DNA from: Deferrisomatales bacterium
Lineage (GTDB): Bacteria > Desulfobacterota > Deferrisomatia > Deferrisomatales > JACRMM01
NCBI GenBank assembly: GCA_033551855.1
Contig: JAWSUI010000005.1
Location: 31,026-95,025 of the forward strand
Length of the DNA stretch: 64,000 nt
Direction of reading: 5' to 3'
Every line of letters begins with the position of its first letter. Within the stretch, counting starts at the first letter, position 1. The notes under the pieces are model-generated. The model had not been told where the DNA came from and did not search any database. It saw only the letters and a program-made list of their open reading frames with translations. Shown here one piece after another: positions 22,880-38,600 of the stretch. The translations under genes and the position numbers were made by a program.

Positions 22880-24334
22880 TCAGATCAGGAACCGCACGGC
22901 CTCCCGGGCCAGGTCCACGATGCTGCCGGGGATGACGCCCAGGTACAGCACCCCGATGCCCGCCAGGACCGTGGCCAGGGCAGCGGAGGGTCCCCCCCGC
23001 AGCTCTTCCACGACCGGGGTCTCGGGGGCCTCTCGGAAGTACATGACCACGATGACCCGCAGATAGTAGTACACGCTCGCGGCCGAGTTGAGCACCCCCA
23101 GGATCGTGAGCCAGTAGTAGCCCTCGTTCACGGCCGCCTTGAAGATGAGGAACTTTCCGATGAAGCCGGCGGTCGGCGGGATCCCGGCCATGGAGAACAT
23201 GAACACCGTCATCGCCAGGCCGAGAAGGGGAAACTTGAACCCCAGCCCCGAATAGGCCTCGAGCTCGGTGTTCTCCTGGCCGAACTTCCCCACCATGATC
23301 ACGCACGCGAAGGCCCCCACGTTCATGAAGGCGTAGGCCAGGAGGTAGAAGAGCATGCCGGAGCTCGCCTCCGGGGTCCCCACCACGAGCCCGACCAGGA
23401 GGTACCCGGCGTGGGCGATGGAGGAGTAGGCCAGCATGCGCTTGACGTCGGTCTGGGCGATGGCGGCGAGGTTCCCCAGGGTCATCGTGAGCAGCGCGAG
23501 CACCCACAGGGCCCCGGACCACTCGCCGTGCAGCGCGGGGAACGCCGTGACGAAGACGCGCACGAAGGCGCTGAACGCCGCCGCCTTCACCCCGGTCGCC
23601 ATGAACGCCGTCACGGCGGTGGGGGCTCCCTGGTACACGTCGGGGGTCCAGGCGTGGAACGGCACCGCCGCCACCTTGAAGGCGAACCCCACCGTGATCA
23701 GGCCGACGCCGATGAGCGCCATCGGGGAGGCCGTGAGCCCCCGGACCTCGGCGAAGTGCCGCATCACGTCGTGGAGCTGCGTGCTCCCGCAGGCCCCGTA
23801 GATGAGCGCGATGCCGTACAGGAGGAACGCCGAGGCGAACGCCCCCAGGAGGAAGTACTTGTAGCTCGCCTCCGCTCCCCGCTCCGTCCGCAGGAAGCCG
23901 GCCAGGGCGTAGATGGCCAGGCTCATGGTCTCGAGGCCCAGGAAGATCACCAGCAGGTGCGTGCCCCCGGCCATGAGCATCATGCCCACCATGGCCAGCA
24001 GCACCAGCGCGTAGTATTCCCCGTGGTCCATCCGCTCGGAGCGCAGGTAGCCCTCGGAGAGGAGCAGGGTCAGCGCCCCCACCACGTAGATCACGAAGTA
24101 GAAAAACGCGGCGAAGCCGTCCGCGGCCAGCATCCGGGAGAACCCCAGGCGCTGCGGGCCGAAGAGGGCGGGGGTCAGCAGGGCCGCCACGACGATGCCG
24201 GCGATGCCCAGGTACGCCAGGTACCCCTTGCGGCCGGCCGGGTTGAAGGCCTCGGCCAGGAGGACCAGCAGGGCGGTCGCCGCGATCGCCATGTGGGGGG
24301 CCAAGGCCCCGAGGTCAGCCATCTGGAAGTCCAT
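22880..24334 (-). CDS. nuoN: NADH-quinone oxidoreductase subunit N
   Basis: 484 aa, about 14 TM, antiporter-like subunit, last gene of the operon. Confidence 0.93.
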   Translation of the reverse strand: MDFQMADLGALAPHMAIAATALLVLLAEAFNPAGRKGYLAYLGIAGIVVAALLTPALFGPQRLGFSRMLAADGFAAFFYFVIYVVGALTLLLSEGYLRSERMDHGEYYALVLLAMVGMMLMAGGTHLLVIFLGLETMSLAIYALAGFLRTERGAEASYKYFLLGAFASAFLLYGIALIYGACGSTQLHDVMRHFAEVRGLTASPMALIGVGLITVGFAFKVAAVPFHAWTPDVYQGAPTAVTAFMATGVKAAAFSAFVRVFVTAFPALHGEWSGALWVLALLTMTLGNLAAIAQTDVKRMLAYSSIAHAGYLLVGLVVGTPEASSGMLFYLLAYAFMNVGAFACVIMVGKFGQENTELEAYSGLGFKFPLLGLAMTVFMFSMAGIPPTAGFIGKFLIFKAAVNEGYYWLTILGVLNSAASVYYYLRVIVVMYFREAPETPVVEELRGGPSAALATVLAGIGVLYLGVIPGSIVDLAREAVRFLI

Positions 24335-24352: not shown

Positions 24353-25918
24353 TCACTCGGCCGCGGAACGGCTCGGTTCCCGCCCAAGGATCAGGGCCAC
24401 GGCGTCCTGGTGTCCCAGCTCCGCACACGCCACCCTCCGGGACTCCACCCGCTCCAACCACTGCTGCACCGAAGCGTCCATGGGACGCAGGAACACTGCG
24501 GGGTAGATCCCCATCCAGAAGGCCAGCACGACCATGGGGACGAGGTAGGCCCACTCCAGGCCCGTCAGGTCGGCCAGCCCCTTGTTCTTCTCGTTGTCCA
24601 GGGGGCCGAAGAAGACCCGCAACACCATCCACAGCATGTACCCCGCCGCCAGGATCACCCCGGACGCGGCAAAAACCGCAGCGGTCTTGGAGGCCAGGAA
24701 CGCGCCGACCATGATCAGGAACTCGCCCACGAACCCGTTCAGGCCCGGCAGCCCGATGGAGCTCATGGTGATCACCACGAAGATCGCCGCGTACCACGGC
24801 ATCTGCTTGGCCAGGCCGCCGAACTGGGCGATCTCCCTGGTGTGGCGGCGCTCGTAGATGACCCCGACCAGGAGGAACAGGGCGCCCGTCGACACCCCGT
24901 GGGCCAGGCTCTGGAAGATGCCTCCCTCGACGCCCTGGACGTTGAAGGCGAAGAGCCCCAGCATGACGAACCCGAGGTGCGACACCGAGCTGTAGGCCAC
25001 CAGCTTCTTCACGTCGCTCTGGACCATGGCCACCAGGGCACCGTAGATGATGCCGATCACCGCGAGCACCATCATGAAGGGCGCGAAGGCCTCGGCGGCG
25101 TTCGGGAAGAGCGGGATCGCGAAGCGCAGGAAGCCGTAGGTGCCCATCTTCAGGAGCACTCCCGCCAGGATCACGGACCCGGCCGTGGGCGCCTGGGTGT
25201 GGGCGTCCGGGAGCCAGGTGTGGAGCGGGAACATCGGCACCTTGATGGCGAAGGCCAGGGCGAAGGCGGCGAAGAGCCAGAACTGCACGTTGGGGGCGAT
25301 GGGCAGGTCGTAGAGCCGCAGCACGTCGAAGGTCGCCCCGTAGCCCGCCTTGATGTTCAGGAAGTAGAGCGTCAGGATCGCGACCAGCATGAGCAGCGAC
25401 CCCACCATGGTGTAGAGGAAGAACTTGATCGCCGCGTAGATCCGCTCCGCCCCTCCCCAGACTCCGATGAGGAAGTACATGGGGATGAGCATCGCCTCCC
25501 AGAAGATGTAGAAGAGGAAGAGATCAAGGGCCACGAGCGCCCCGAGCATCCCGGTCTCCAGTAGGAGGAAGAAGAACATGTACTCCCGGACCTGCTTCTC
25601 GATGCTCCAGGACGACAGGATGCAGATCACCGAGAGGAAGGTGGTCAGGAGCACCAGGAAGAGGCTGATCCCGTCGATCCCGAGAAGGTACTGAATCCCC
25701 AGGCTCTCAATCCACGGGGCGCGCTCCACGAACTGCATGCCCCCCTCCCCGTTGTCGAAGCCGAACCACAGGGGCAGGCTCAGGGCGAAGGTCAGCAGCG
25801 TCACGAAGAGGGTCCAGCCGCGGAGCAGCCCCAGGCCCCCCCGGGGGAGGAAGAGCAGGACCACCGCCCCCGCCAACGGCAGGAAGGTGATCAGGGTCAG
25901 GATCGGAAGCTCACCCAT
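24353..25918 (-). CDS. nuoM: NADH-quinone oxidoreductase subunit M
   Basis: 521 aa; ...HTWLPDAHTQAPTAGSVILAG... is typical of NuoM. Confidence 0.94.
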   Translation of the reverse strand: MGELPILTLITFLPLAGAVVLLFLPRGGLGLLRGWTLFVTLLTFALSLPLWFGFDNGEGGMQFVERAPWIESLGIQYLLGIDGISLFLVLLTTFLSVICILSSWSIEKQVREYMFFFLLLETGMLGALVALDLFLFYIFWEAMLIPMYFLIGVWGGAERIYAAIKFFLYTMVGSLLMLVAILTLYFLNIKAGYGATFDVLRLYDLPIAPNVQFWLFAAFALAFAIKVPMFPLHTWLPDAHTQAPTAGSVILAGVLLKMGTYGFLRFAIPLFPNAAEAFAPFMMVLAVIGIIYGALVAMVQSDVKKLVAYSSVSHLGFVMLGLFAFNVQGVEGGIFQSLAHGVSTGALFLLVGVIYERRHTREIAQFGGLAKQMPWYAAIFVVITMSSIGLPGLNGFVGEFLIMVGAFLASKTAAVFAASGVILAAGYMLWMVLRVFFGPLDNEKNKGLADLTGLEWAYLVPMVVLAFWMGIYPAVFLRPMDASVQQWLERVESRRVACAELGHQDAVALILGREPSRSAAE

Positions 25919-25937: not shown

Positions 25938-27911
25938 CTAGAACGCAGCCATGAGCGCGTAGTAGGCGACCACCACCACGGCCCCGAAGAGGATCGTCAG
26001 CGCGTAGCCCTGCACCCGGCCCGTCTGGAGCTGCCGTAGCCCGCCGCCCACCGTGCGCACCAGGTACCCGGTGCCGTTGACGATCCCGTCGATCACGACC
26101 ACGTCCCAGAACGCCCACAGGAAGGTCGCCAGGGACAGGCAGGTGTCCACGAACACCGCCTGGTAGATCTCGTCCACGTAGTACTTGTTGTTCAGAAGCT
26201 CGTACGCGCCGCGGCACTTCTCGGCGATCGCCTTCGGCAGGTCGGGCTTCAGGAGGTAGAGGAAGTAGGCGCCCAGGATGCCCAGGAGCGCGTACGCCAC
26301 GCTCAGGAACATGAGCACGTACTCGACGGGATCGTGGTGGGCGGCCCCGTGCTCCCCCGCCGCGCCGGCCATTTCCGCCGCCGCGTGGACGCCGGCCTGG
26401 GACCCGACGTCGAGGACGGGCGCGAGCCAGTGGTGGAAGTGGTTTGCTCCCCCCAGGGCCGCGGGGATTCCGATCCAACCGCCCACCACCGAGAGCAGGG
26501 CCAGGATCCACAGAGGCCCGGTCATGCTCACGGGCGACTCGTGAACGTGGACCTCGTGATGGTCGAAGCGCTCCTTGCCGAAGAAGGTCATGAACACGAG
26601 GCGGAACATGTAGAACGCCGTGATGCCGGCCGCTATGAACCCCAGGAACCACTGAAACTGGAATCCGTTGGACCACGCCATCCACAGGATCTCGTCCTTC
26701 GAGAAGAACCCGGCCAGGGGCGGAAGCCCCGCGATGGCGATGGTGGCCACGAGGAAGGTGAGATAGGTGTGGGGCATGTGGGCCTTCAGGCCCCCCATCT
26801 TGCGCATGTCCTGCTCGCCGCCCATCCCGTGGATCACCGACCCGGACCCGAGGAACAGGCAGGCCTTGAAGAAGGCGTGGGTCATGAGGTGGAAGATGCC
26901 CGCCACGTACGCCCCCACCCCCATGGCCGTGAACATGTAGCCGAGCTGGCTCACGGTGGAGTAGGCGAGCACCTTCTTGATGTCGTTCTGGGTCAGGGCG
27001 ATGGTCCCGGCGAAGAGGGCCGTGAGGGCCCCGATGGTCGCCACCACCGCCATGGTGGTCGGGGCCAGGGAGTAGAGCACCGCCGCCCGGCCGATCATGT
27101 AGACGCCCGCGGTGACCATGGTGGCCGCGTGGATCAGGGCCGATACGGGGGTCGGGCCCGCCATCGCGTCGGGGAGCCAGACGTAGAGGGGAATCTGGGC
27201 GCTCTTGCCCGTGGCTCCGACGAAGAGCAGGAGGGTGATCGCGGTCACCGCGGCCCCTCCGACCGCAAGGGTCGCCGGCGCCTGGGCCATGACGGTGCGG
27301 AAGTCCAGGGTGCCGAAGTACACGAAGATCAGGAACATGCCCAGCAGGAAGCCGAAGTCGCCGATCCGGTTGACGATGAAGGCCTTCATGCCGGCCGCCG
27401 CCTTGGCGCGGTCCTCGAACCAGAATCCTATGAGGAGGTAGGAGCACAGCCCCACCCCTTCCCAACCCACGAACATCACCAGGAAGTTGCTCCCCAGCAC
27501 CAGGGTGAGCATCGCGAAGCTGAAGAGGTTGAGGTACGCAAAGTAGCGGGAGTAGCCCGGGTCGTGGTGCATGTACCCCACCGAGTACACGTGGATCAGG
27601 AACCCCACGCCCGTGACCACCAGGATCATCACGGCGCTCAGGGGATCCAGCAGGTACGCGAGATCGACCTTCAGCGAGCCGGCGGCGATCCACTCGAACA
27701 GCGTCTGGGTCAGGACCCGCTCGGTCTCCGGGAGGGCCCGCAGGGTGAAGAACCCCCACACCGAGACCAGGAACGAGAGAAACACGCTCCCGCACGCGAT
27801 CCAGTGGACGAGGCTCTTGGGCAGCCGCTTCCCGATGAGGCCGTTGATCAGGGCCCCCACCATCGGGAAGAGCGGGATGAGCCAGATGTACTCCCAGGTG
27901 TGTTCGTGCAT
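25938..27911 (-). CDS. nuoL: NADH-quinone oxidoreductase subunit L
   Basis: 657 aa; ...PLYVWLPDAMAGPTPVSALIHAATMVTAG..., with lateral-helix C-terminus. Confidence 0.95.
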   Translation of the reverse strand: MHEHTWEYIWLIPLFPMVGALINGLIGKRLPKSLVHWIACGSVFLSFLVSVWGFFTLRALPETERVLTQTLFEWIAAGSLKVDLAYLLDPLSAVMILVVTGVGFLIHVYSVGYMHHDPGYSRYFAYLNLFSFAMLTLVLGSNFLVMFVGWEGVGLCSYLLIGFWFEDRAKAAAGMKAFIVNRIGDFGFLLGMFLIFVYFGTLDFRTVMAQAPATLAVGGAAVTAITLLLFVGATGKSAQIPLYVWLPDAMAGPTPVSALIHAATMVTAGVYMIGRAAVLYSLAPTTMAVVATIGALTALFAGTIALTQNDIKKVLAYSTVSQLGYMFTAMGVGAYVAGIFHLMTHAFFKACLFLGSGSVIHGMGGEQDMRKMGGLKAHMPHTYLTFLVATIAIAGLPPLAGFFSKDEILWMAWSNGFQFQWFLGFIAAGITAFYMFRLVFMTFFGKERFDHHEVHVHESPVSMTGPLWILALLSVVGGWIGIPAALGGANHFHHWLAPVLDVGSQAGVHAAAEMAGAAGEHGAAHHDPVEYVLMFLSVAYALLGILGAYFLYLLKPDLPKAIAEKCRGAYELLNNKYYVDEIYQAVFVDTCLSLATFLWAFWDVVVIDGIVNGTGYLVRTVGGGLRQLQTGRVQGYALTILFGAVVVVAYYALMAAF

Positions 27912-27933
27912 CGCAGCGTCCTCTTTCGGGCGC

Positions 27934-28236
27934 TCAGCCCTTGAGCAGATCGAGCTCGTCCGCGTACACCGTGTGCCGGATCCGGTACAGCGACACGATG
28001 ATAGCCAACCCCACCGCGGCCTCGGCCGCCGCCACCGTCATGACGAAGAGCACGTAGATGAGCCCCTCGGCGCTGTTGAGGTGGTCGGCGATGGCCACGA
28101 AGGCCAGGTTTACGCCGTTGAGCATGAGCTCGATGCACATGAGAAGGACGATGACGTTGCGCCGGAGCAGGACGCCCACGGCCCCCAGGGTAAAGAGCAC
28201 TGCCGAGAGGGTCATCGAGTACTCGAGGGGAATCAT
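27934..28236 (-). CDS. nuoK: NADH-quinone oxidoreductase subunit K
   Basis: 100 aa, 3 TM, MCIELMLNGVNL motif. Confidence 0.93.
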   Translation of the reverse strand: MIPLEYSMTLSAVLFTLGAVGVLLRRNVIVLLMCIELMLNGVNLAFVAIADHLNSAEGLIYVLFVMTVAAAEAAVGLAIIVSLYRIRHTVYADELDLLKG

Positions 28237-28287
28237 CTCATCCTCCGTTGCCCGTCGGGCCTGAACACAACGTCCGCCCCGCGGGGA

Positions 28288-28794
28288 TCACAGGCGCTTC
28301 TTCGCGAGGACAACCGCGCCGACGAGCCCCACCAGGAGCAGGATGCCGGCGGCCTCGAAGGGCAGCAGGTACGTGGTGAAGAGCTCGTCGGCGATGAGCT
28401 CCACGCTGCCCACCTGCTCCCGGGCCTCGAGGGTCATCCCCCCGGTCACCCCCGTGAGCCGGGAGGCCAGGGGCACCACGAGGAGCACGAAGAGCAGGCC
28501 CGCCCAGACCAAGCCCACCAGCTTCGCCCCCGAGGGCCGCTTCCCGGCGCCTTCCTCCTTCCGGATGTCCAGGAGCATGATCACGAACACGATGAGCATC
28601 ATCACGGCCCCGGCGTACACCATGAGCTGGATGGCGAAGATGAACTCGGCGTGGTGGAGCAGGTAGATCACCGCCAGGCTCACCATGGTCCCCACCAGGG
28701 ACATGGCCGAGTGGATGGGGTTGCGGCAGGTCAGCACCCCCAGCGCGCCCAGCACCGCCAGACCCGCGAAGACGAAAAAGAGCGCTACGGCCAT
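28288..28794 (-). CDS. nuoJ: NADH-quinone oxidoreductase subunit J
   Basis: Last 168 aa of ORF 28288..29064 from MAVALFFVFAGLAVLGALGVLTCRNPIHSAMSLV. Confidence 0.9.
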   Translation of the reverse strand: MAVALFFVFAGLAVLGALGVLTCRNPIHSAMSLVGTMVSLAVIYLLHHAEFIFAIQLMVYAGAVMMLIVFVIMLLDIRKEEGAGKRPSGAKLVGLVWAGLLFVLLVVPLASRLTGVTGGMTLEAREQVGSVELIADELFTTYLLPFEAAGILLLVGLVGAVVLAKKRL

Positions 28795-28817
28795 AGAGAA
28801 CCTCCTCCCCTTTCGCC

Positions 28818-29219
28818 TCAGTTCCGGGCCAGCACGTCCCGGGTCATGTGGAACTCCTCCCGGGTGTACCCGCAGAACTCGTATTCGCGCGTGAGCTCGA
28901 TGGCGTCCTTGGGGCACGCCTCCGCGCAGTACCCGCAGAAGATGCAGCGCGACACCTCCACCACGAACCGCTCCGGAAACCGGCGGCCGTCGGGGGTCTC
29001 CTTCGCCTCCACGGTGATCACGTCGGCCGGGCACACCGCCTCGCACAGGCCGCAGGCCACGCACTTGAGGCGTCCGTTCTCGCTCTTGAGCCGGTGCAGC
29101 CCTCGCCAGCGCTCTGCGGGCTCCCGCTTCTCCTCGGGATACTGGATGGTGACGGGCTTGGTGAAGAACCGCCCCAGGGTGAACGCCAGTCCCTTGAGGA
29201 GGGGGGTGATGACCGCCAT
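28818..29219 (-). CDS. nuoI: NADH-quinone oxidoreductase subunit I (2x[4Fe-4S])
   Basis: 133 aa; CVACGLCEAVCP and CIFCGYCAEACP. Confidence 0.95.
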   Translation of the reverse strand: MAVITPLLKGLAFTLGRFFTKPVTIQYPEEKREPAERWRGLHRLKSENGRLKCVACGLCEAVCPADVITVEAKETPDGRRFPERFVVEVSRCIFCGYCAEACPKDAIELTREYEFCGYTREEFHMTRDVLARN

Positions 29220-29253
29220 CTCGTCTCTCCTGTGCCGGCCCGCGCCGCGCCGG

Positions 29254-30261
29254 TTACGCGAACACCGTGTAGTACACGCCCACCACCACCACGTTGGCGA
29301 TGGACACCGGGATCAGCACCTTCCACCCGAAGTTCATCACCTGGTCGTACCGGAATCGGGGGAAGGTGCCCCTCTCCCAGATGAAGAAGAAGACCAGCAC
29401 GAACACCTTGAGGAGGAACCACACGACCTTCGGGACGAAGGGCACCTCGATGCCGAAGGGCAGGTGCCACCCGCCCAGGAAGAGGCAGGTGATCAGTGCG
29501 GCCAGCGAGATCGCGTGGGCATACTCGGCCATGAAGAACATGGCGAACTTCATGCTCGAGTACTCGATGTTGAAGCCGCAGGCGAGCTCGCTCTCGGCTT
29601 CCGGCATGTCGAAGGGCGTGCGGTTGATCTCGGCCAGCCCGCAGATCAGGTACAGGACGAAGGGAACCCAGAGGATGGGGTTGAAGATGTTCCACATGTG
29701 GCTCTGGCCGTCCACGATCTGCACCAGGGAGAGGCTGCCGCTGACCATGATGACGCTGATCAGCGTGAATCCCAGGGCGAGCTCGTAACTGACCATCTGG
29801 GCCGCCGCCCGCAGGGAGCCCATCAGGCCGTACCGGTTGTTCGAGCCCCACCCCCCCAGGACGACGCCGAACTCGCCGAGGCTCGCCAACCCGAGAATGA
29901 AGATCAGCGCCACGTTGATGTCCGCCACCCTCATCGTGATTTCCCGCCCGAAGAGGGTGATCGACTCCCCGAAGGGGATCACCGAGACGATCAGGATGGC
30001 CGGGATGATGGAGAGGGCCGGCGCCAGGATGTACGCCACCCGGTCCGCGTTCGCCGGGACGATGTCCTCCTTGAAGAACCCCTTGATGCCGTCGGCGATG
30101 GGCTGGAGCAGGCCGAAGGGGCCCACGCGGTTGGGCCCGCGGCGCACCTGGATGCGGCCCAGCACCCGGCGCTCCAGCCAGGTGGTGTAGGCCACCATCA
30201 GCATGAGAACGCCGAAGACCACCACCACCTTGATCACGCTCTCGATCAGGAAGGCAACCAT
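29254..30261 (-). CDS. nuoH: NADH-quinone oxidoreductase subunit H
   Basis: 335 aa; ...TWLERRVLGRIQVRRGPNRVGPFGLLQPIADG... Confidence 0.95.
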   Translation of the reverse strand: MVAFLIESVIKVVVVFGVLMLMVAYTTWLERRVLGRIQVRRGPNRVGPFGLLQPIADGIKGFFKEDIVPANADRVAYILAPALSIIPAILIVSVIPFGESITLFGREITMRVADINVALIFILGLASLGEFGVVLGGWGSNNRYGLMGSLRAAAQMVSYELALGFTLISVIMVSGSLSLVQIVDGQSHMWNIFNPILWVPFVLYLICGLAEINRTPFDMPEAESELACGFNIEYSSMKFAMFFMAEYAHAISLAALITCLFLGGWHLPFGIEVPFVPKVVWFLLKVFVLVFFFIWERGTFPRFRYDQVMNFGWKVLIPVSIANVVVVGVYYTVFA

Positions 30262-30283
30262 GGGCTCCTCGCTTTGCTCGGCC

Positions 30284-30311
30284 GCGACGCGTGACGGGTG
30301 ACGCGTGACGC
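30284..30311. repeat. Tandem heptads GCGACGC GTGACGG GTGACGC GTGACGC in the spacer between the FdhA-like gene and nuoH
   Basis: Read directly; the mRNA (minus) sense is GCGUCAC repeats. Confidence 0.65.
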
Positions 30312-30389
30312 GCTACCCCCTAGCCGCTGCCCGTCGCGCGTTGCTGTCGGCCGACGGCGTTTGGCCGTTGACCCTTCACTCTTCAACGT

Positions 30390-33062
30390 TCACACCTTCT
30401 CCACCCGCACCGCGCAGACCTTGTACTCGGGGATCTTGGCCGTGGGGCAGACCACCGGGTTGGTCAGCACGTTCACCGGGGACTCGCTGTAGTGGAAGCT
30501 CAGGAACACGGTGCCGGGCGCGGTGCGGTCCACCACCTGTACCTTGGTCCGGATCTCGCCCCGGCGGGAGGACACCTGGACGGTGTCGCCGGTCCGGAGT
30601 CCCAGCTTCTCCGCGTCGGCCGGGTGCACCTCCATGAAGCCCTCGGGAAAGCAGTCGTTGATGCGCCCGCACCGCCGGGTCATGGTGCCCGAGTGGTAGT
30701 GGGCGTGCTCCCGGCCGGTGGTGAGCAGGAGCGGGTACTCGGCGTCCGCCTTCTCGTCCGCCCCGCGGAACGCGACCGGCGTGAAGAGCCCCTGGCCCCG
30801 GGTGAACTTGCCCACGTGGAGGATCGGCGTGCCCGGGTGATCCTTGCTCGGGCAGGGCCACTGGAGCCCCTCGCGCTCGAGCCGGGCGTAGTCCATGCCG
30901 GCGTAGCTGGGCGTCAGGCGGGCGATCTCGTCGAAGACCTCCGAGGGCCCTTCGTAGCTCATCTTGAGGCCCATGCGGCCGGCCAGGTCCTGAAAGATCT
31001 CCCAGTCCGGCCGGGACTCGCCCCGGGGCGCCACGGCCGCCCGCACCCGCTGGACTCTGCGCTCGGTGTTGGCGAAGGTGCCGTCCTTCTCGGCGAAGGA
31101 GCTGGCCGGGAGCACCACGTGGGCCTTGGCGGCGGTCTCGGTGAGGAAGATGTCCTGGACCACCAGGAGCTCGAGCTTCTCGAGCGCCTCTCCGACGTGG
31201 CTCAAGTCCGGGTCGGTGATCATGGGGTTCTCGCCCATGACGTAGAGGGCCTTGACCGTACCGTCCAGCGCGCCGTGGGTGGCCTCGGTCACGGTGAGCC
31301 CGGGCTTGCGGGGGACCTTGCGGCCCCAGGCCTCTTCGAACTTGGCCGCGGCCGCGTCGTCGTCCACCCGCTGGTACCCGGTGAGGACGTTGGGGAGGCC
31401 CCCCATGTCGCAGGCGCCCTGCACGTTGTTCTGGCCCCGCAAGGGGTTCAGCCCCCCGCCCTCCACGCCGACGTTGCCGCACAGCATCGCGAGGTTGGCC
31501 AGGGCCTTGACGGCATCGGTGCCCTGGGAGTGCTGGGTGACGCCCATGCAGTAGAGGATCGATGCCGGCTTCGCGGCGGCGTAGAGGCGCGCGGCCTCCC
31601 GGAGGGACTCCGCGGGCACCCCGATGATCAGCTCCACCTTCTCCGGCGTGAAGTCGGCCAAGGACGCGGCGAGTTCCTCGAAGCCCTCGCACCGCTCGGC
31701 CACGTAGGCCGCGTCGTGGAGCCCCTCCGCGAGGATCACGTGCATCATCGCGTTGAGGACGGGGATGTTGTGGCCGGGTTCGATCTGCAGGAAGACGTTC
31801 GCGTAGTCCGTGAGCGGGATCCGGCGGGGATCGACCACGACCAGCTTGGCCCCCTTCCGGGTGATGGCTCGTTTGAGCACATCGCCGATGATCGGATGGT
31901 TCTCGGTGGTGTTGGAGCCGATGACCAGGAACGCCGCGGCCTTCTCGAAGTCGGCGATGGAGTTGGTCATCGCGCCGGAGCCGAAGCTGGTGGCCAGACC
32001 GGCCACGGTGGCGCTGTGTCAGAGTCGTGCGCAGTGATCGACGTTGTTGGTGCCGATCACCGCGCGGAAGAACTTCTGGAAGAGGTAGTTGTCCTCGTTC
32101 GTGCACCGGGCGCTCGCGAACCCTGCGACCGCGTCGGGGCCGCTCTCGTCCTTGATCTGCTGGAGCTTCGACGCGACAAAACCGAGGGCCTCGTCCCAGG
32201 TGGCCTCCGCGAGCTGGCCGTTCTTCCGCACCAGGGGCACGGTGAGCCGGTCGGGGTGGTTGACGAACTCCCAGCCGAACCGGCCCTTCACGCACAGGCT
32301 CCCCCGGTTCGGGACCGCGTCGAAGTCGGTGGTGGTGACCCGCAGGACCTGGTCGTTCTTCGCGTTGAGCTCGAGCTGACACCCGACGCCGCAGTACCCG
32401 CACGTGGTGCGGACGCGGCTGGCCTGCCAGGTGCGTGCCTTGCGGGGCATCACCGAGTCGGTCAGCGCCCCCACCGGGCAGACCGAGAGGCACTCGCCGC
32501 AGGAGATGCACTCCACCCCCGGCACCGGGCCGATGTAGGAGTGGAACCCGTTGTCGACGATCTGGATGCACCCGATGCCCTTGATCTCCTTGCAGGCGTG
32601 GACGCACCGGGCGCACAGCACGCATCGGTCGGGCCACTGCTGGATGAATGGGGAGACGTACCGGGGCACGGGGCGCTCGAAGGTCTCGGCCGCAAAGTCC
32701 TGCTTCGTGACGCCGAATTCCCAGGTCAGGTCCTGGAGGTCGCACTCGCCCCCCTTGTCGCAGACCGGGCAGTCCAGGGGGTGGCGCACGAGGAGGAGCT
32801 TGAGGACGTCGCGCCGCATCTCCCGGAGCTCCTCCGACTCGGTGCGCACGACGAGGCCCTCTCCGGCCGGGGTGTCGCAGGCGGTGATGGGCTTCCGATA
32901 CCCCTCCACCTCCACCACGCACATGCGGCAGGACCCGATGGGGGCGAGCTTCTTGAGCCAGCACAGGGTCGGGATCCGAATCCCCACCGACTGGGCGGCC
33001 TCGAGAATCGTCGTCCCCTTGGGGACGCTCACCGCTTTGCCGTCGATCGTCAGGCTGATCAT
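30390..33062 (-). CDS. Selenocysteine-containing FdhA/NuoG-like molybdopterin oxidoreductase subunit (ORF-track pieces 32019..33098 and 30390..32006 joined across an in-frame TGA)
   Basis: Both pieces are in the same frame, separated only by TGA at 32019-32021: ...[30 protein letters not shown]... N-terminus has 2Fe-2S plus HPLDCPVCDKGGECDLQD (NuoG/FdsA-like). Then CVLCARCVHAC, CISCGECLSVCP, TTCGYCGVGCQL (MopB 4Fe-4S) and a C-terminal molybdopterin dinucleotide-binding domain. Start at MISLTIDGK (GAGGGG 8 nt upstream) or 12 codons earlier at 33098. Confidence 0.9.
31990..32021 (-). promoter_or_regulatory. UGA(Sec) codon plus bacterial SECIS hairpin
   Basis: mRNA reads UGA CAC AGC GCC ACC GUGGCC-GGUCU-GGCCAC. 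A 6-bp stem carries apical loop GGUCU at nt 22-26 from the U of UGA, the same loop sequence and spacing as E. coli fdhF. Confidence 0.8.
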
Positions 33063-33165
33063 GCAGAACCCCTCGCGGAGATGCAGGCTGTCGGCCATGG
33101 ACTGTTTGCCCTCAGCCCTTCCCGTGTCACGTATGACCCAACGCTTGGCATACTCGCTGTGAACT

Positions 33166-33204
33166 TCCTATAGGACCTATAGGTCCCATAGGTCCTATAG
33201 GACC
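33166..33204. repeat. AT-richer 9-nt periodic palindrome TCCTATAGGACCTAT-aggtccc-ATAGGTCCTATAGGA
   Basis: 15-bp perfect stem with four TATAGG(A/T)CC-type units, in the 131-nt spacer between the two input-module genes. Confidence 0.75.
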
Positions 33205-33229
33205 CCCAAGGGGAAAGCTCCGTCATCCC

Positions 33230-35188
33230 TCACGCCCCCGTCGCCACTGCCAGCAGCCGGTAACACCGCAGGCACCGGCTGGCGTCGGCGATGGCCTCCT
33301 CGTGGGTGAACCCGATCTCGGCCTCCCGGAAGTCCGTCACCCGCTCCTCGACCGGCGCGTGGTGGATGTGGGCGGGCTCGGTGGTCGGGGGCACCCCCAC
33401 GTCTTCCTTGGGGTCGTAGGGCTTGAGCTTCTCCACGTACTGGTTCATGACCCACTCCTCCAGGGCCTCGGTGCGCCCCTCCCGGAGGAACCGGTCGATC
33501 TGGAAGGCCGCTTCCTTGCCCCCGGCCAGTCCGGCAATCAGGGTGAGGGGGCCGGAGACGCAGTCGCCGGCGGAAAAGACCCCCACTCCGTTGTGGACCG
33601 CGGCGAGTTTGTTGAGCCCCTCGACCTGGATCTGCTTCCACTTGTCCGCCTTCACCGGCCCGTCCGCGAACAGGAAGGAGAGGTCGATGGCCTGGCCGAT
33701 GGCGGGGATGACCGCATCCACCGGGATCACGAGCTCGCTCCCCTTGACCTCTACGGGCCGCCGCCGTCCCGAGGCGTCGGGCTCCCCGAGTTCCATCCGG
33801 ACGAGCTCCACCCCCGTGACCTTCCCCTTCTCGTCCAGCACCAGCCGGGTGGGGTTGTGCAGCACCAGGAACTCCACGTTCTCGGCCTTGGCGTCGGCGA
33901 TCTCCACCTTGTCGGCGGGCATCTCCGCCTCGCTGCGCCGGTACACCAGCTTCACGTTCTCGTAACCCAGGCGCAGGGCCGTGCGCACGCAGTCGATGGC
34001 CACGTTGCCGCCGCCCACCACGGCCACCGTCTTTCCCACGAACACCGGTGTCCCCAGGGCGACGTCCCGGAGGAAGTCGGCGCCCCGCATGAAGCCTTCC
34101 TTCGCTTCCCCCTCGCCGGGCACGCCCATGCCGGTGCCGAGGCGAGCCCCCACCCCCAGGAACACCGCCCGGTACTCCCCGCCCAGCAGGTCCGCAAAAG
34201 GCACGTCCGTGCCCACATCGGTGCCGTAGCGCATCGTCACCCCCATCTCCCCGATCAGGTCCGCCTCTCGGCGGAGGATCGCGCGGGGGAGGCGGTAGTC
34301 CGGGATGCCCACGGCCGCCATGCCGCCGGGCTCCGGGAGGGCCTCGAACACCGTGCAGTCGTACCCCATCTGGGCCAGGTAGAAGGCGCAGGAGAGCCCC
34401 GCGGGCCCGGCGCCCACCACCGCCACCTTCTCCTTGTCGATGACCGGCTTGGGCAGCCGGGGGGGCCGCTTGCGCTCCAGCTCGTAATCCGCCACGAAGC
34501 GCTTGAGGAACTTGATCTGGACCGGCCCATCCACGTTCTGACGGCGGCAGTTGAACTCGCAAGGCCGGACGCAGACCCTCCCCACCGTGCCCGGCAGGCA
34601 GTTGTCCTGGCGGATCACGTCCAGACTCTCCAGGAACTTCCCGTTCTTGACGTGCTCCACGTAGGTGGGGATGTCGAGGTGGGCCGGGCAGGCGCTCTTA
34701 CACGGCGCCGTCACCTTGAGTCGGTAGGTGCCCCGGGGGATCTCCGACTCCCCCCCCGCCGCCGCATCGAGCTCGGCGCGGAAGTGGGTGACGAGGTCCA
34801 GGAACGCCTTCCCGCAGGACTGCCCCAGATCGCACAGCGCCTGCTCGCGGAGGCGGCCCGCCAGCCGCGCCACGGTCTCCACGTCGCCGGCCTGCCCCCG
34901 GCCCAGGCAGATGCGGTCGAGGCAGTCGTGGATGACCTTGCTCCCCACCCGGCAGGGGACGCACTGGCCGCAGGAGTTTCTCACCAGCCCCTCGGCGTAG
35001 GCCCGGCCCAGATCGACGGGGTTCACCCCGTCGTCCCACAGGGCGATCCCGTCCCATCCCATGATTCCGAGGACCGGGGTGCCGGAGGACAAGGACTTGG
35101 GCAGGGCTACGTCGTCGGGGCCCTGGGCCGTGGCCTGCCGGCTGTCGAGGAGCTTGCCGCCCCAGCTCGAAAAGATCCGATCGGACAT
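33230..35188 (-). CDS. NuoF-C-terminal Fe-S domain fused to a GltD-like NAD(P)H flavoprotein (SfrB-like)
   Basis: Last 652 aa of ORF 33230..36076 from MSDRIFSSWGG (GAGGAGAG upstream). NSCGQCVPCRVG...ALCDLGQSCG matches the NuoF N3-cluster region, but no FMN/NADH domain is present. CKSACPAHLDIP / CVRPCEFNC Fe-S motifs follow. Two dinucleotide folds: VAVVGAGPAGLSCAFYLA and VAVVGGGNVAIDCVR. Confidence 0.88.
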   Translation of the reverse strand: MSDRIFSSWGGKLLDSRQATAQGPDDVALPKSLSSGTPVLGIMGWDGIALWDDGVNPVDLGRAYAEGLVRNSCGQCVPCRVGSKVIHDCLDRICLGRGQAGDVETVARLAGRLREQALCDLGQSCGKAFLDLVTHFRAELDAAAGGESEIPRGTYRLKVTAPCKSACPAHLDIPTYVEHVKNGKFLESLDVIRQDNCLPGTVGRVCVRPCEFNCRRQNVDGPVQIKFLKRFVADYELERKRPPRLPKPVIDKEKVAVVGAGPAGLSCAFYLAQMGYDCTVFEALPEPGGMAAVGIPDYRLPRAILRREADLIGEMGVTMRYGTDVGTDVPFADLLGGEYRAVFLGVGARLGTGMGVPGEGEAKEGFMRGADFLRDVALGTPVFVGKTVAVVGGGNVAIDCVRTALRLGYENVKLVYRRSEAEMPADKVEIADAKAENVEFLVLHNPTRLVLDEKGKVTGVELVRMELGEPDASGRRRPVEVKGSELVIPVDAVIPAIGQAIDLSFLFADGPVKADKWKQIQVEGLNKLAAVHNGVGVFSAGDCVSGPLTLIAGLAGGKEAAFQIDRFLREGRTEALEEWVMNQYVEKLKPYDPKEDVGVPPTTEPAHIHHAPVEERVTDFREAEIGFTHEEAIADASRCLRCYRLLAVATGA

Positions 35189-35205
35189 GGACGTCTCTCC
35201 TCGCT

Positions 35206-36384
35206 TCAGCGGTCGATCTCGCCGAGGACGATGTCGAGGGAACCGATCACCGCGACGACGTCCGCGACCATCCGGCCCAGGATCATCGGCTCCAGGGCCT
35301 GGAGATTCACGAAGCAGGGAGGCCTGACCCGGAACCGCCAGGGCTTCTCCGTGCCGTCGGAGACCAGGTAGTAGCCCAGTTCCCCCTTGCTCGCCTCCAC
35401 GCTCATGTACACGTCCCCGACCGGCGCCTTGTAGCCGTCGCTCATGAGCTTGAAGTGGCGGATGAGGGCCTCGATGTGCTCGTAGACGTCCTGCTTGGGG
35501 GGCGGGGTGAAGCGAGGGTCGTCGAGCATCACCGGACCCTCGGGCATCCGGTCCAGGGCCTGCTCGGCGATCCGCAGAGATTGGCGCATCTCCACCAGGC
35601 GCACCAGATAGCGCTCGTACACGTCGCCCACCGTCCCGGTGGGGATCTCGAAATCGTAGGTCTCGTAGTCGCAATAGGGCTGGGCCTTGCGCAGGTCCCA
35701 CTGGATACCGGCTGCGCGCAGCACGGGGCCGGTCAGGGCGAACTGGACGCATTCCTCGGCGCTGATGATCCCGATGCCCTCGGTGCGCCCTCTCCAGATC
35801 TTGTTCTGGGTCAGGAGGCGCTCGTACTCGTCGATCCGTGAGGGGAACTCCTGGATGAAGGCCCGGGCCTTCTCGAAGAACACCGGCGGCACGTCCTCCG
35901 GCAAGCCCCCCACCCGGATGTAGCTCGGGGTGAGGCGCGCGCCGTGGACGTCCTCCAGGAGGTCCATGACCTTCTCGCGGTCCCGGAAGGTGTAGAACAG
36001 CACCGTCATGGCACCGATGTCGAGGGCATGGCTGGCCAGCCACAGCAGGTGGCTGGCGATCCGCTGGAGCTCGCACAGGCAGACCCGAAGGACCGTCGCC
36101 CGGGCCGGGATCTGATCCTCGATGCCCAGGAGCTTCTCCACGGCCAGGGTGTACCCCAGGTTGTTGAGCAGGGCGCCCACGTAGTCCATCCGGTCCGTGA
36201 GCGTCAGGGCCTGGTGGTAGGTCTTGGTTTCCGCCAGCTTCTCGAGTCCGCGGTGCAGGTGGCCCAGGTGCGGCGTCACCCCCACGACGGTCTCGCCGTC
36301 GAGCTCCAGCACGAGCCGGAGCACCCCGTGGGTGGCCGGGTGCTGGGGGCCCATATTGACGACCATGTTCCGGGTCTCGCCCAT
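35206..36384 (-). CDS. nuoD: NADH-quinone oxidoreductase subunit D
   Basis: 392 aa; MVVNMGPQHPATHGVLRLVLELDGE... Confidence 0.96.
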   Translation of the reverse strand: MGETRNMVVNMGPQHPATHGVLRLVLELDGETVVGVTPHLGHLHRGLEKLAETKTYHQALTLTDRMDYVGALLNNLGYTLAVEKLLGIEDQIPARATVLRVCLCELQRIASHLLWLASHALDIGAMTVLFYTFRDREKVMDLLEDVHGARLTPSYIRVGGLPEDVPPVFFEKARAFIQEFPSRIDEYERLLTQNKIWRGRTEGIGIISAEECVQFALTGPVLRAAGIQWDLRKAQPYCDYETYDFEIPTGTVGDVYERYLVRLVEMRQSLRIAEQALDRMPEGPVMLDDPRFTPPPKQDVYEHIEALIRHFKLMSDGYKAPVGDVYMSVEASKGELGYYLVSDGTEKPWRFRVRPPCFVNLQALEPMILGRMVADVVAVIGSLDIVLGEIDR

Positions 36385-36433
36385 GATGCCCTCCGTCCGG
36401 GTGCGCCCTGGCGGGACGCGGCCGGGTCAGCTC

Positions 36434-36913
36434 TCAGCGGTAGTGCACCTTCTGGGGAATGCCATGGAGCGGAAAATCCTTGCGCAGGGGGTGCCCCACG
36501 TACCCGTCCCACAGCAGGATGCGCCGCAGGTCCGAGTGCCCTTCGAACACGATGCCGAAGAGGTCGTACACCTCGCGCTCCAGCCAGTTGGCAGCCTTCC
36601 AGACCCCCTCCACCGTGCGGATCGTCGCATTCTGGGCCACGGCGGCCTTCAGGCGGAGCCGGCGGTTGTGGGGGAAGGAGTACAGGTTGTAGACGACCTC
36701 GAATCGCGGCTCGCCGGGCAGGCGGTCCACCGCGGTGAGGTCGGCGAGCATGTCGAACCGCAGCGCCTCATGGTCCCGGCAGCAGGCGCACACGTCCACG
36801 ATGCGCTCCGGGTCCACCGCCACGCTGAGCTGGCCGCGGAAGGCGGTGTCGCCCAAGATGGCGTCGCCGCAGCTACCTTTCAGGATCTCGACGATCGGGG
36901 ATTGGTCGCTCAT
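36434..36913 (-). CDS. nuoC: NADH-quinone oxidoreductase subunit C
   Basis: 159 aa; ...ANWLEREVYDLFGIVFEGHSDLRRILL... Confidence 0.93.
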   Translation of the reverse strand: MSDQSPIVEILKGSCGDAILGDTAFRGQLSVAVDPERIVDVCACCRDHEALRFDMLADLTAVDRLPGEPRFEVVYNLYSFPHNRRLRLKAAVAQNATIRTVEGVWKAANWLEREVYDLFGIVFEGHSDLRRILLWDGYVGHPLRKDFPLHGIPQKVHYR

Positions 36914-36929
36914 TTCGGCCTCACGCTGG

Positions 36930-36957
36930 TTGCGTGTTGCGTGTTGCGTGTTGGGCG
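36930..36957. repeat. Tandem heptads TTGCGTG x3 plus variant TTGGGCG in the nuoB-nuoC spacer
   Basis: Read directly; the mRNA sense is CACGCAA x3. Confidence 0.7.
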
Positions 36958-37006
36958 CCGGAAAAGCTTTCTCCCACGCGCAACGTACCGCCCGCCGCGA
37001 GCAGCT

Positions 37007-37507
37007 CTACGCGATCAGCCGCCCCTCGGTGTCCGGACGGTCCGAGAACTTCTCGCTGCCGATCTTGTCCTGGAGCTTGATGATCGCGGCCAGGAGCTGC
37101 TCGGGGCGGGGAGGACAGCCGGGCACGTACACGTCCACCGGCAGGAACTGGTCCACGCCCTGGACGGTGTTGTACGTGTTGAAGATGCCGCCGGAGCACG
37201 CACACGACCCGTAGGCGATCACCCACTTGGGCTCCGGCATCTGGCGATAGATGCGCTCCACCATGCCCGCCATCTTCTTGGTCACGGTACCGGCCACGAT
37301 CATCAGGTCCGACTGCCGGGGAGAGGGGCGGAAGACCTCGGCCCCGAACCGGGCGATGTCGTAGTTGGAGGCCGACGCCGCCATCATCTCCAGCGCACAG
37401 CAGGCCAGGCCGAAGGTCGCGGGCCAGATGGAGTTCTTCCGCGCCCAGCCCACCACCTTCTCGAGCCGCGTGACCAGGACGGGGGGCAGCTTGCTCTCTA
37501 CTCCCAT
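37007..37507 (-). CDS. nuoB: NADH-quinone oxidoreductase subunit B
   Basis: Last 166 aa of ORF 37007..37900 from MGVESKLPP... [11 protein letters not shown] and [10 protein letters not shown]...PGCPPRPE (N2 cluster ligands). Start overlaps the nuoA end by 10 nt. Confidence 0.94.
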
Positions 37508-37854
37508 TGCAGGACTCCTTTCCTCCAGGTGTAGGCGAATCCCACCACGAGGACGAAGAGGAAGACCATCATGCCCACGAACGCCTCGGGCCCCAGATGA
37601 CGGAAGCGGACGGCCCAGGGGTAGAGGAAGGCCACCTCCAGATCGAAGACCAGGAACTCCATGGCGACGAGGTAGTACTTGATGTCGAAGGCCCGGCGCC
37701 CGCCCGGCTCCACGACCATCCCGCACTCGTAGGTGGCGAGCTTGTCGGCGTTGGGGCGCCGGGGGCCGAGGAAGGTGGAGATCAGAACCACACCCAGGCC
37801 GAACGCCGTGGCCAGGAGGAACAGGATGAGGATCGGCACGTAGTTCTGAAGCAT
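37498..37854 (-). CDS. nuoA: NADH-quinone oxidoreductase subunit A
   Basis: 118 aa, 3 TM, ...[32 protein letters not shown]... Confidence 0.93.
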
Positions 37855-37927
37855 GCGGGCCTCCTCGGACCGGGCTCAGGGAGAGCGAGGCTGTACGCAA
37901 GTGAAGATCCGGAACAAACTCGCGCGT

Positions 37928-37957
37928 ATGCTACTTTGCAGCATTTTCACCTGTCAA
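37928..37957 (-). promoter_or_regulatory. Candidate sigma70 promoter of the nuo operon, TTGACA-18nt-TAGCAT
   Basis: Consensus match on the minus strand, in the lower-GC spacer about 75-100 nt upstream of nuoA. Confidence 0.4.
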
Positions 37958-38042
37958 GGCGGAAACACCGGCGCTTTTGCGAGAAACGTTCTAAAGTGAA
38001 GACGCGCCGCCCCAGGCGCCGGAGGGCCCTCGACAGCCCCCC

Positions 38043-38480: not shown

Positions 38481-38520
38481 GTCGGACGGGCCTTCGCCTC
38501 GACCGTGCCCTGCTCGAACC

Positions 38521-38580
38521 GGTCTCGGTATCGGTATCGCAGTCGGCGTCGATCCCGATCCGGGTCCAGATTTCGATGGG
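38521..38580. repeat. Hexamer-periodic element related to 15445-15510
   Basis: ggtctc ggtatc ggtatc gcagtc ggcgtc gatccc gatccg ggtcca gatttc gatggg; shares the tail GATTTCGATGG. Confidence 0.6.
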
Positions 38581-38600
38581 CGGTGAGGCGCGGCGGGCCC

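Follow-up and report, generated by a model that had tools for sequence, protein, structure and literature searches.

Organization of the operon

The window analyzed here is a stretch of 64,000 nucleotides from a Deferrisomatales bacterium (GCA_033551855.1, contig JAWSUI010000005.1) with a G+C content of ~69%. It carries a complex I (nuo) operon of thirteen minus-strand genes which run in one direction from 37854 to 22880, in the order nuoABCD, a gene for a 652-aa flavoprotein (33230..35188), a gene for an 890-aa subunit of the FdhA/NuoG type (30390..33062) and nuoHIJKLMN. The flavoprotein, which is SfrB/FdhB-like, was assigned from Pfam, NCBIfam and solved-structure matches and from motif conservation, and the 890-aa subunit from Pfam, equivalog models and alignment to FdsA. 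This pair, the subject of the present analysis, fills the slot of nuoEFG exactly, between nuoD and nuoH. No copies of nuoE, nuoF or nuoG were found elsewhere in the scanned open reading frames (ORFs) of the window.

The Q and P modules of complex I are complete, with NuoA, B, C, D, H, I, J, K, L, M, and N all matched by NCBIfam/Pfam models and with the curated cut-offs exceeded by NuoB, NuoC, NuoD, NuoI, and NuoK. Ahead of the pair lie, all on the minus strand, nuoA (37498..37854, 118 aa; NCBIfam NuoA models, E=2e-37), nuoB (37007..37507, 166 aa; NF005012, 243 bits vs. a cut-off of 116), nuoC (36434..36913, 159 aa; TIGR01961, 143 bits vs. 122) and nuoD (35206..36384, 392 aa; TIGR01962, 567 bits vs. 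459). The pair is followed, on the same strand, by nuoH (29254..30261, 335 aa), nuoI (28818..29219, 133 aa with two 4Fe-4S motifs; TIGR01971, 138 bits vs. 113), nuoJ (28288..28794, 168 aa), nuoK (27934..28236, 100 aa) and the genes of three antiporter-like subunits, nuoL (25938..27911, 657 aa), nuoM (24353..25918, 521 aa) and nuoN (22880..24334, 484 aa). NuoB bears the tandem-cysteine motif for cluster N2 (GLACCALE, as read from the sequence), while NuoD has the quinone-site His/Tyr motifs GPQHPATHG and DRMDY, a C-terminus ending in LGEIDR and no cysteine ligands for a NiFe center. By these N2 and quinone-site motifs, the Q module is of the quinone type and not of the hydrogenase type.

The flavoprotein and the G-type subunit

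The 652-aa protein possesses three Pfam domains, these being NADH_4Fe-4S (62-142), Fer4_20 (160-239) and Pyr_redox_2 (254-547), and shows no match to PF01512, SLBB or PF01257 at E<=0.01. It contains NSCGQCVPCRVG, ALCDLGQSCG, GAGPAG and GGGNVAID. Its N-terminal part has the ligands of an N3-type [4Fe-4S] cluster known from the C-terminal region of NuoF (C73/76/79/119), and among solved structures residues 10-143 matched only the NuoF-like C-terminal cluster domain. The remainder is a GltD/NfnB-type module with two [4Fe-4S] clusters, an FAD site (GAGPAG, 259-264), an NAD(P)H site (GGGNVAID, 392-399) and YRRS at 416-419, the best solved relatives of residues 156-642 being NfnB and the GltD-like parts of Stn/Nfn-type enzymes. 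In 84 homologs of the flavoprotein the four N3-type cysteines, the cysteines of Fer4_20 and of a C-terminal CxxC, the FAD motif GAGPAG, GGGNVA[IM]D and YRR[ST] are all invariant or nearly so.

The 890-aa protein, which contains HPLDCPVCDKGGECDLQD, has the Pfam domains Fer2_4, NADH-G_4Fe-4S_3, Fer4_Nqo3 (a two-cluster ferredoxin), Molybdop_Fe4S4, Molybdopterin and Molydop_binding. Its ligands comprise those of a [2Fe-2S] cluster (C34/45/48/62), an N5-type cluster (H94/C98/101/107), two [4Fe-4S] clusters (C147/150/153/157 and C185/188/191/195) and the FS0/N7 cluster (C221/224/228/257). They are followed by a domain for a molybdenum or tungsten bis-pyranopterin guanine dinucleotide cofactor (Mo/W-bisPGD) with selenocysteine (Sec) 348, His349, and Arg542; Lys259 is also intact. 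The protein scores 875 bits with the formate dehydrogenase (FDH) alpha equivalog TIGR01591, above the cut-off of 666, and 440 bits with the NuoG equivalog TIGR01973, just under the cut-off of 470. Its best solved-structure match is FdsA of Rhodobacter capsulatus (6tg9), to which it aligns end to end (821 bits, E=1e-245), with Sec348-His349 lying on Cys386-His387 of FdsA and Arg542 within PLRGQNNVQG. The 208 N-terminal residues score 152-163 bits against NuoG/75-kDa subunits and 165 bits against FdsA; the N-terminal domain and its N5 loop are of NuoG grade, and the protein as a whole is FDH-like. Class I formate dehydrogenases have an active site of the form U/C-H ... RGQ (PMC8808070). On account of the TIGR01591 score, the alignment of Sec, His, and Arg to FdsA and a SECIS_3 match, the protein is apparently a full formate dehydrogenase alpha subunit with an active site predicted to be live.

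Sec348 is encoded by an in-frame TGA (32019..32021, minus strand). A SECIS-like element (selenocysteine insertion sequence; 31966..32024, minus strand) was matched by the Rfam model SECIS_3 (E=1.5e-7, 38 bits) in exact register with the UGA, its hairpin GUGGCC-GGUCU-GGCCAC beginning 12 nt past this codon. The G+C content at third codon positions (GC3) is 0.93-0.96 on either side of the TGA, homology runs unbroken across it, the TGA-His pair is conserved in many homologs, and the public annotation of the contig gives a single 890-residue product. The TGA is read as selenocysteine, not as a stop, because of the SECIS_3 match in register, the continuity of GC3 and homology and the conservation of TGA-His in homologs. 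No genes were found in the 64-kb window for fdhD/E, selABD, tRNA-Sec, Mo/W-cofactor synthesis or a formate transporter.

A preliminary description of this DNA had listed the thirteen genes in the same order and direction, exactly as obtained by the ORF and hidden Markov model (HMM) analysis. It took the 652-aa protein for a C-terminal NuoF Fe-S region continued by a GltD-like NAD(P)H flavoprotein, with which the Pfam domains and motifs agree, and the 890-aa protein for a NuoG-like N-terminus fused to an FDH-type Mo/W-bisPGD domain with a Sec-His pair, which is borne out by Pfam, TIGR01591 and the FdsA alignment. All the HMM results that it forecast for both proteins were obtained, and the complete FMN/NADH domain of NuoF which it considered might have been overlooked was not found by Pfam at E<=0.01. 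With regard to spacing, its mention of overlaps holds (nuoA and nuoB share 10 nt), but its upper limit of about 130 nt for the gaps does not. The spacing within the operon ranges from the 10-nt overlap to 167 nt, the longest spacer being that from the stop of the 652-aa gene to the start of the 890-aa gene at 33062, and a maximum of ~130 nt is valid only if an alternative upstream ATG at 33098 is taken as this start. The start at 33062 is preceded by a GAGGGG Shine-Dalgarno sequence which is conserved in a relative (locus L007 of the survey below).

Distribution and genomic context

Homologs were surveyed in a scan with one genome per species, which supplied 80 of the 84 flavoprotein loci classified in all (L numbers denote loci), and nuo context was called by tblastn with all thirteen window proteins. 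Such a context was present at 51 of the 84 loci and clearly absent at 19, with 14 loci too short to judge. In the nuo-context loci, which span several orders, flavoprotein identity to the window is 43-78%, and the slot between nuoD and nuoH is held by homologs at 78%, 66%, and ~50% identity. Carriers include members of the Syntrophales (a Syntrophus metagenome-assembled genome (MAG), Smithellaceae), Syntrophorhabdales, Syntrophobacterales and Deferrisomatales, as well as the complete ORM2a genome, Desulfohalobiaceae and other Thermodesulfobacteriota. The packing is tight in L005 and L006, with gaps of 2-16 nt and with overlaps of 4-8 nt for the flavoprotein and G genes. Pairwise distances between flavoproteins correlate with those of NuoD, NuoH, and NuoL (Spearman 0.68-0.74) as strongly as do those among the Nuo core subunits themselves (0.66-0.82), and the module has therefore long shared the inheritance of the membrane engine.

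No motif was found which separates nuo-embedded from stand-alone flavoproteins, the cofactor motifs and the N-terminal FSW...P...GWG being alike in both contexts. A single clade of nuo-embedded flavoproteins was also sought in a neighbor-joining tree and was not recovered. The taxonomic labels of homologs are mixed: an 81%-identical flavoprotein is labeled 'Candidatus Dadabacteria bacterium' and a 48%-identical one 'Spirochaetes bacterium', while stand-alone pairs occur in MAGs of Anaerolineae, Nitrospirota, and Thermodesulfovibrio. This suggests either lateral spread or noise in binning and taxonomy.

A number of loci depart from the layout of the window. In L055 (1-21343), the nuoH..N end of a distant cluster (31-44% identity) is directly followed by a complete nuoABCD-flavoprotein-Sec-FdhA-nuoH..N cluster. 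In L026, L046, and L059, nuoH comes directly after the flavoprotein gene, and a full-length Sec-FdhA with a complex-I-type N5 loop is encoded before nuoA in L046 and after nuoN in L059. A 1.36-kb insertion (11935-13294) separates the flavoprotein and G genes in L057.

Further redox genes adjoin the operon at some loci. L020 (30-7218), and likewise L013, L016, L032, L035, L043, L045, and L048, has an extra gene set just ahead of nuoA and in the same orientation, coding for an HdrB-like (CCG) protein, an HdrA-like flavoprotein of 905 aa, an Fe-S protein and a short Sec-FdhA. This set, found at loci where the formate site of the G-type subunit is dead, looks like an Hdr-linked formate dehydrogenase. 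An extra Sec-FDH adjoins the operon at 13 of 40 dead-G loci vs. none of the 11 Sec-site loci, a borderline difference (Fisher p=0.046). The adjacency was dropped as evidence, given the borderline p and the fact that the extra FDH of L020 is part of an Hdr-like cluster. In L004 (500-6832) and L036 (211-4763) there is a divergent neighboring cluster for a NuoE-like protein, a 1038-aa NuoF-GltD fusion (Complex1_51K, SLBB, NADH_4Fe-4S, Fer4_20, and Pyr_redox_2) and a Sec-FdhA whose N5 loop is not of the complex I type (HPYDCMTCEKSG[ST]C). The product of this cluster looks like a soluble formate dehydrogenase of a Stn/Bfu-like kind, encoded next to the variant nuo operon.

Loss of the formate site and retention of the iron-sulfur chain

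The active site was surveyed in 45 nuo-embedded G-type subunits. Sec-His-Arg is kept in 11 of them (the window, L002, L007, L008, L014, L027, L042, L044, L049, L055, and L073), whereas at least one of these residues is gone in the other 34, and all three in nearly all of the 34 (L043 retains a Cys-His pair and L048 the Arg). Yet all 20 Fe-S ligands, four for each of five clusters, are retained in all 45. The model scores follow the same course, that for FDH alpha falling across the family (875, 725, 652, 474, 410, none) and that for NuoG remaining steady at 345-462. Since the dead-site copies keep both the Fe-S ligands and the operon slot, the conserved role is probably a NuoG-like one, namely electron transfer into complex I. 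As the formate site is dead in most members, the NAD(P)H flavoprotein is predicted to be the donor site that is constant throughout the family, with formate a putative extra input in a minority which includes the window. The G subunit of L043 (12049-14706), which has Cys-His in place of Sec-His, His in place of the catalytic Arg and a shifted N5 histidine (GHHDCPICD), is possibly an intermediate state.

A blind search of alignment columns found six of 890 positions that split nuo-embedded from stand-alone subunits, and four of the six fall within the 13-residue N5 loop. The canonical complex I form of this loop, HPL[DE]CPxCDxxGEC, is present in ~47 of 50 nuo-linked copies (a count which takes in two loci with the G gene at the edge of the cluster) vs. 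only 1-2 of 16 FdhA proteins from outside nuo clusters, a set which is small (~16 sequences) and phylogenetically clustered. There is one clear exception to the rule that the loop follows context, namely L030 (3974-6637), a stand-alone FdhA with no nuo genes in its flanks, a canonical complex-I N5 loop and a Ser-His active site. In complex I, the N5 cluster hands electrons to NuoI. Given this, and the near confinement of the complex-I-type loop to nuo-linked copies, the loop is the best available sequence-level sign that the 890-aa subunit would dock on the Q module.

Proposed function and alternatives

The reading favored here, to which we assign a probability of about 0.6, is that the pair is physically part of this complex I as its input module and that its donors are formate and NAD(P)H. 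The operon would then encode a 13-subunit complex I with a two-protein input head docked in the NuoEFG position. The 890-aa subunit would stand in for NuoG and rest on NuoI with the Fe-S domain at its N-terminus, the 'Y-junction'. Its contact with the 652-aa subunit would be made by the [4Fe-4S] domain which the latter has kept from the C-terminus of NuoF, in the way that NuoF binds NuoG. NAD(P)H, probably NADPH, would be oxidized at the FAD, and its electrons would pass over the two [4Fe-4S] clusters and the N3-like cluster to the [2Fe-2S] cluster and the junction. Formate would be oxidized at the Mo/W-bisPGD-Sec site, with electrons moving over the proximal [4Fe-4S] and a bridging [4Fe-4S], the second cluster of the ferredoxin domain, to the same junction. 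From there they would leave by the His-ligated N5-type cluster for N6a/N6b in NuoI, N2 in NuoB and finally (mena)quinone, whose reduction would drive proton pumping by NuoL/M/N/H. The enzyme would thus be a proton-pumping formate/NADPH:quinone oxidoreductase which probably also interconverts formate and NADPH. In soluble formate dehydrogenases the N5 arm is not known to lead anywhere; in the window enzyme all three arms of the junction look connected. The docking, the electron path, the donors, the direction of flow and the quinone used are features which we infer from sequence.

In the preliminary description, feeding by NADPH and/or formate had been suggested for what was viewed as a single odd operon. 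The arrangement is instead that of a large family (51 of 84 loci), and the survey of synteny which that description had proposed finds the nuoD-flavoprotein-G-nuoH order recurring across orders. The suggested feeding is strengthened by this conservation of gene order, by co-inheritance, by Fe-S retention and by the N5 loop, while the function itself stays at the level of prediction.

A number of points weigh against the favored reading. The pair occurs without any nuo genes in L029, L030, L040, L062, L067, L072, L079, L082, and L086, so the module can function as a soluble enzyme. The neighbor-joining tree leaves its deep nodes unresolved and shows nuo-embedded flavoproteins interleaved with stand-alone ones. 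On either side of the 890-aa gene lie the longest spacers of the operon (167 and 128 nt), both of which contain repeats and could permit separate regulation. The N5 contrast draws on the small non-nuo set mentioned above. With the SECIS-like element, the 38 bits lie under the Rfam gathering score of 63, and the hairpin is no more stable than shuffled sequence (folding z = -0.95 and -0.06). NADPH rather than NADH is suggested as the flavoprotein substrate only by family membership and by YRR[ST], a motif usual in GltD-like proteins that use NADPH. A canonical nuoEFG set may lie outside the 64-kb window, and the attachment of the pair to Nuo subunits is a prediction.

Several of these points would be expected if the pair were a soluble NADP-dependent formate dehydrogenase of the SfrAB or Moorella FdhAB type, only co-transcribed with an 11-subunit complex I that is fed by ferredoxin or otherwise, so that the two would be tied by regulation or metabolism and not by structure. 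Stand-alone pairs of the same architecture in many genomes, the interleaved tree and the long spacers around the 890-aa gene in the window all fit this alternative, as does the JGI label 'formate dehydrogenase (NADP+) beta subunit' for homologs, and 11-subunit complexes with unassigned donors are common (PMC11238625). It gives no reason, however, why the exact nuoD-nuoH slot is occupied across orders at 43-50% identity, and under it neither the retention of that slot with all 20 Fe-S ligands after catalytic loss nor a complex-I-type N5 loop, which is rare in soluble relatives, would be expected. The overlaps with adjoining nuo genes in other lineages also suit subunits of one complex, and a soluble enzyme is considered unlikely here.

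A further alternative accepts the assembly as proposed and reverses the flow, so that the proton motive force pushes electrons uphill from menaquinol to NADP+ and/or CO2, with the formation of NADPH or formate for which syntrophic or autotrophic metabolism has a need. Syntrophs must lift electrons from the quinol level to that of formate or H2, and the family is concentrated in groups where this uphill lift would be needed, namely Syntrophales, Smithellaceae, Syntrophorhabdales, and Syntrophobacterales. Both complex I and metal-dependent formate dehydrogenases are reversible enzymes, and an Hdr-linked Sec-FDH adjoins the operon in several syntroph loci. The direction of flow is not readable from sequence; the formate site is dead in most of the syntroph members, and relatives in the Deferrisomatales are described as respirers of Fe(III) and sulfur, for which forward oxidation of formate or NADPH is the simpler assumption. 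Flow mainly in reverse is rated as distinctly improbable; for the numerous carriers among syntrophs, a reaction driven backwards by the proton motive force is an attractive option.

Even less credible is the reading of the 890-aa gene as a pseudogene or as coding for an inactive enzyme, in which case the TGA would be a true stop and the product would serve, like those of most family members, at most as an Fe-S scaffold. The modest SECIS score and unremarkable fold, the failure to find selenium-insertion genes and tRNA-Sec in the window and the loss of catalysis in most nuo-embedded homologs would agree with this, but His349, Arg542, and Lys259 are intact, the FDH alpha score is far over its cut-off, the SECIS-like element is in exact UGA register and the public annotation has one 890-residue product. 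A pseudogene was rejected, with frame, GC3, and homology continuous across the TGA and the TGA-His pair conserved in dozens of homologs.

Least probable of all is electron bifurcation or confurcation by an enzyme of the Bfu/Stn/Nfn kind, in which, for example, formate, NADP(H) and quinone would be coupled obligatorily. In favor of this, NfnB and the GltD-like part of StnC are homologs of the flavoprotein, and for operons of the Geobacter type 'Nuo-Bfu' complexes have been proposed. However, the core that defines Bfu, BfuB (NuoF-type with FMN) and BfuC (NuoE-type) (PMC9304861), is missing, with neither PF01512 nor PF01257 found in either protein, and the Bfu reading was rejected for this reason. 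No second acceptor branch is evident either, and on thermodynamic grounds coupling is unneeded, since the potentials of both donors lie far below that of menaquinone.

A more far-reaching reading is considered less likely than not. All arms of the Y-junction would be live, and the enzyme would be a reversible hub, coupled to the proton motive force, between formate/CO2, NADP(H) and menaquinone. Within a single operon slot, the family would form a stepwise series from a complete formate dehydrogenase to a NuoG-like subunit that only transfers electrons, its members being extant intermediates of complex I acquiring and then silencing its G subunit. The enzymes of syntrophs would run in reverse, from quinol to NADPH or formate, and so provide a route that has long been sought.

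Novelty and significance

The electron donor of complex I lacking NuoEFG has been an open question since a catalog of 2011 (PMC3144371), and that of 11-subunit complexes was still unknown in 2024 (PMC11238625). In open-access full text, no description was found of the order nuoABCD-flavoprotein-FdhA-nuoH..N or of a GltD-type flavoprotein with a complete Sec-FDH in the NuoFG slot. What is new here, at the level of predicted proteins, is the family-wide recurrence of the arrangement, the loss of catalysis with the Fe-S ligands kept and the nuo-linked N5 loop. Homologs carry public labels such as 'FAD-dependent oxidoreductase', 'dihydropyrimidine dehydrogenase subunit A' and 'formate dehydrogenase beta subunit'; metagenome studies would therefore score these operons as 'nuo lacking EFG', and the arrangement would stay hidden.

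The window operon encodes an identifiable candidate donor module for one class of 'headless' complex I, in the form of a testable formate/NADPH:quinone oxidoreductase hypothesis. If this is true, oxidation of formate or NADPH in these anaerobes would conserve much more energy than with non-pumping dehydrogenases, and uphill electron flow in syntrophs could be accounted for by the reverse reaction. A family in which the formate site is lost by degrees and the Fe-S wire kept also offers natural material on the evolution of the N module from soluble FDH/hydrogenase modules.

Intergenic repeats, control signals, and neighboring genes

The 167-nt spacer ahead of the 890-aa gene contains four tandem 9-nt units, CCTATAGGN, each with an 8-bp palindrome as its core (33167..33201; 3 exact copies vs. 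0.08 expected). This stretch is AT-rich within a genome of 69% G+C, and the motif is found nowhere else in the window. It is not in the matching spacers of L007 and L008, which carry repeats of their own (GCTGACAGC...). The repeats could act as an operator or as an RNA structure. A repeated GTCACGCGTCAC/CCGTCACGCGTC motif lies in the 128-nt spacer between the 890-aa gene and nuoH (30285-30325, minus strand). Upstream of nuoA there is a sigma-70-like promoter match, TTGACA-18-TAGCAT (37928..37957, minus strand), which is a weak assignment as the number of promoter-like sites in 22000-38600 is at chance level (1 found vs. 0.9 expected). There was no sign of terminators within the operon, the counts of the terminator scan being at chance level.

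The operon has lepA downstream, and a NUDIX hydrolase gene and an acyl/acetoacetyl-CoA synthetase-like gene upstream. The window also holds a compact methyl-cycle cluster (41709-45640, plus strand) with genes for S-adenosylmethionine synthetase, a PfkB-family kinase and S-adenosylhomocysteine hydrolase, and a phosphoenolpyruvate carboxylase of the archaeal type in this bacterial genome (52465-54471, plus strand; Pfam PEPcase_2, E=4e-84). A hybrid sensor kinase of ~1700 aa (54536-59653, minus strand) has CHASE, multiple PAS, HisKA/HATPase, two receiver, and Hpt domains. A second large hybrid sensor kinase of >900 aa (61283-64000, minus strand) extends past the end of the window, and tRNA-Leu(TAA) sits between the two genes (61057-61142). 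Two coding-like ORFs on the plus strand have no Pfam match at E<=1e-5, namely 3430-4983 (517 aa, GC3 0.86) and 45570-46493 (307 aa, GC3 0.81).

Comparison with known systems

Like the window operon, the canonical 14-subunit complex I (Thermus thermophilus, Escherichia coli, Mycobacterium smegmatis, and the mitochondrial core) has the eleven Q/P subunits in the same order and an input module between nuoD and nuoH. Canonical NuoG shares with the window G-type subunit its N-terminal Fe-S domain and the N5 loop HPLDCPxCDxGGEC, and NuoF shares its N3-type cluster domain with the flavoprotein. The differences are that a GltD-type FAD/NAD(P)H flavoprotein replaces NuoE and the FMN/NADH domain of NuoF, and that the G subunit retains both a complete Mo/W-Sec formate site and the second [4Fe-4S] cluster of its ferredoxin domain. 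Canonical NuoG has lost this bridging cluster and its N7, ~20 Å from N4, is disconnected, and the complex I of M. smegmatis showed no formate activity (PMC10068793).

The NAD-dependent FdsABG(D) enzymes of R. capsulatus and Cupriavidus necator (6tg9/6tga) have the same clusters and the same Cys/Sec-His...Arg site as the 890-aa protein. They are soluble, they have Cys and not Sec, their FdsB and FdsG are of the NuoF and NuoE type with FMN, and the loop of FdsA equivalent to that of N5 is HPLDCLTCAANGDC.

As usually described, soluble FdhAB of Moorella thermoacetica and SfrAB of Geobacter sulfurreducens have the same two-protein architecture as the window pair. Their alpha subunit consists of a NuoG-like N-terminus and a Mo/W-bisPGD domain, often with Sec, and the beta subunit of the NuoF Fe-S tail and a GltD-like FAD/NADPH module. 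The window flavoprotein has the domain order of SfrB and NADP-FDH beta subunits (NADH_4Fe-4S, Fer4_20, Pyr_redox_2), and none of the cluster cysteines and neither of the two dinucleotide motifs is missing from it. These enzymes are cytoplasmic and their genes do not lie inside a nuo operon, and the stand-alone alpha subunits of our homolog set, unlike that of the window, are mostly without the complex-I-type N5 loop.

The Stn enzymes combine a GltD-like NADP(H) domain with a NuoG/FDH-like Fe-S protein, and Stn/Nfn-Bfu structures (8oh5, 9bov, 9n5u) are the best available for residues 156-642 of the flavoprotein. Unlike the window pair, they are soluble, have bifurcating cores of the NuoE/NuoF type and lack a Mo site. 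In formate hydrogenlyase (FdhF-Hyc/Hyf) and Fdh-Mfh-Mnh, an FDH feeds a membrane module related to complex I, as would be the case here, but the acceptor is a proton-reducing [NiFe] hydrogenase and not a quinone reductase; FdhF, moreover, has no NuoG-like domain at its N-terminus, and its docking is mediated by a ferredoxin-like subunit of its own. ForCE of Bacillus subtilis (8rqz) is, as proposed for the window enzyme, a menaquinone-linked FDH with a NuoG-like N-terminus (PMC8808070), but its active site is Cys-Gln and it lacks the membrane arm of complex I.

Exchangeable donor modules on an engine of 11 subunits, as in the window, are known from Fpo (FpoF, F420H2), cyanobacterial NDH-1 (ferredoxin) and Campylobacter Nuo (flavodoxin). 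'Nuo-Bfu' has been proposed as another alternative input (PMC9304861), and a survey of 2011 reported 12-subunit forms with a NuoG-like subunit and no NuoE/F (PMC3144371). The window operon differs from all of these in using a GltD-type flavoprotein together with a catalytically complete FDH in the G position.

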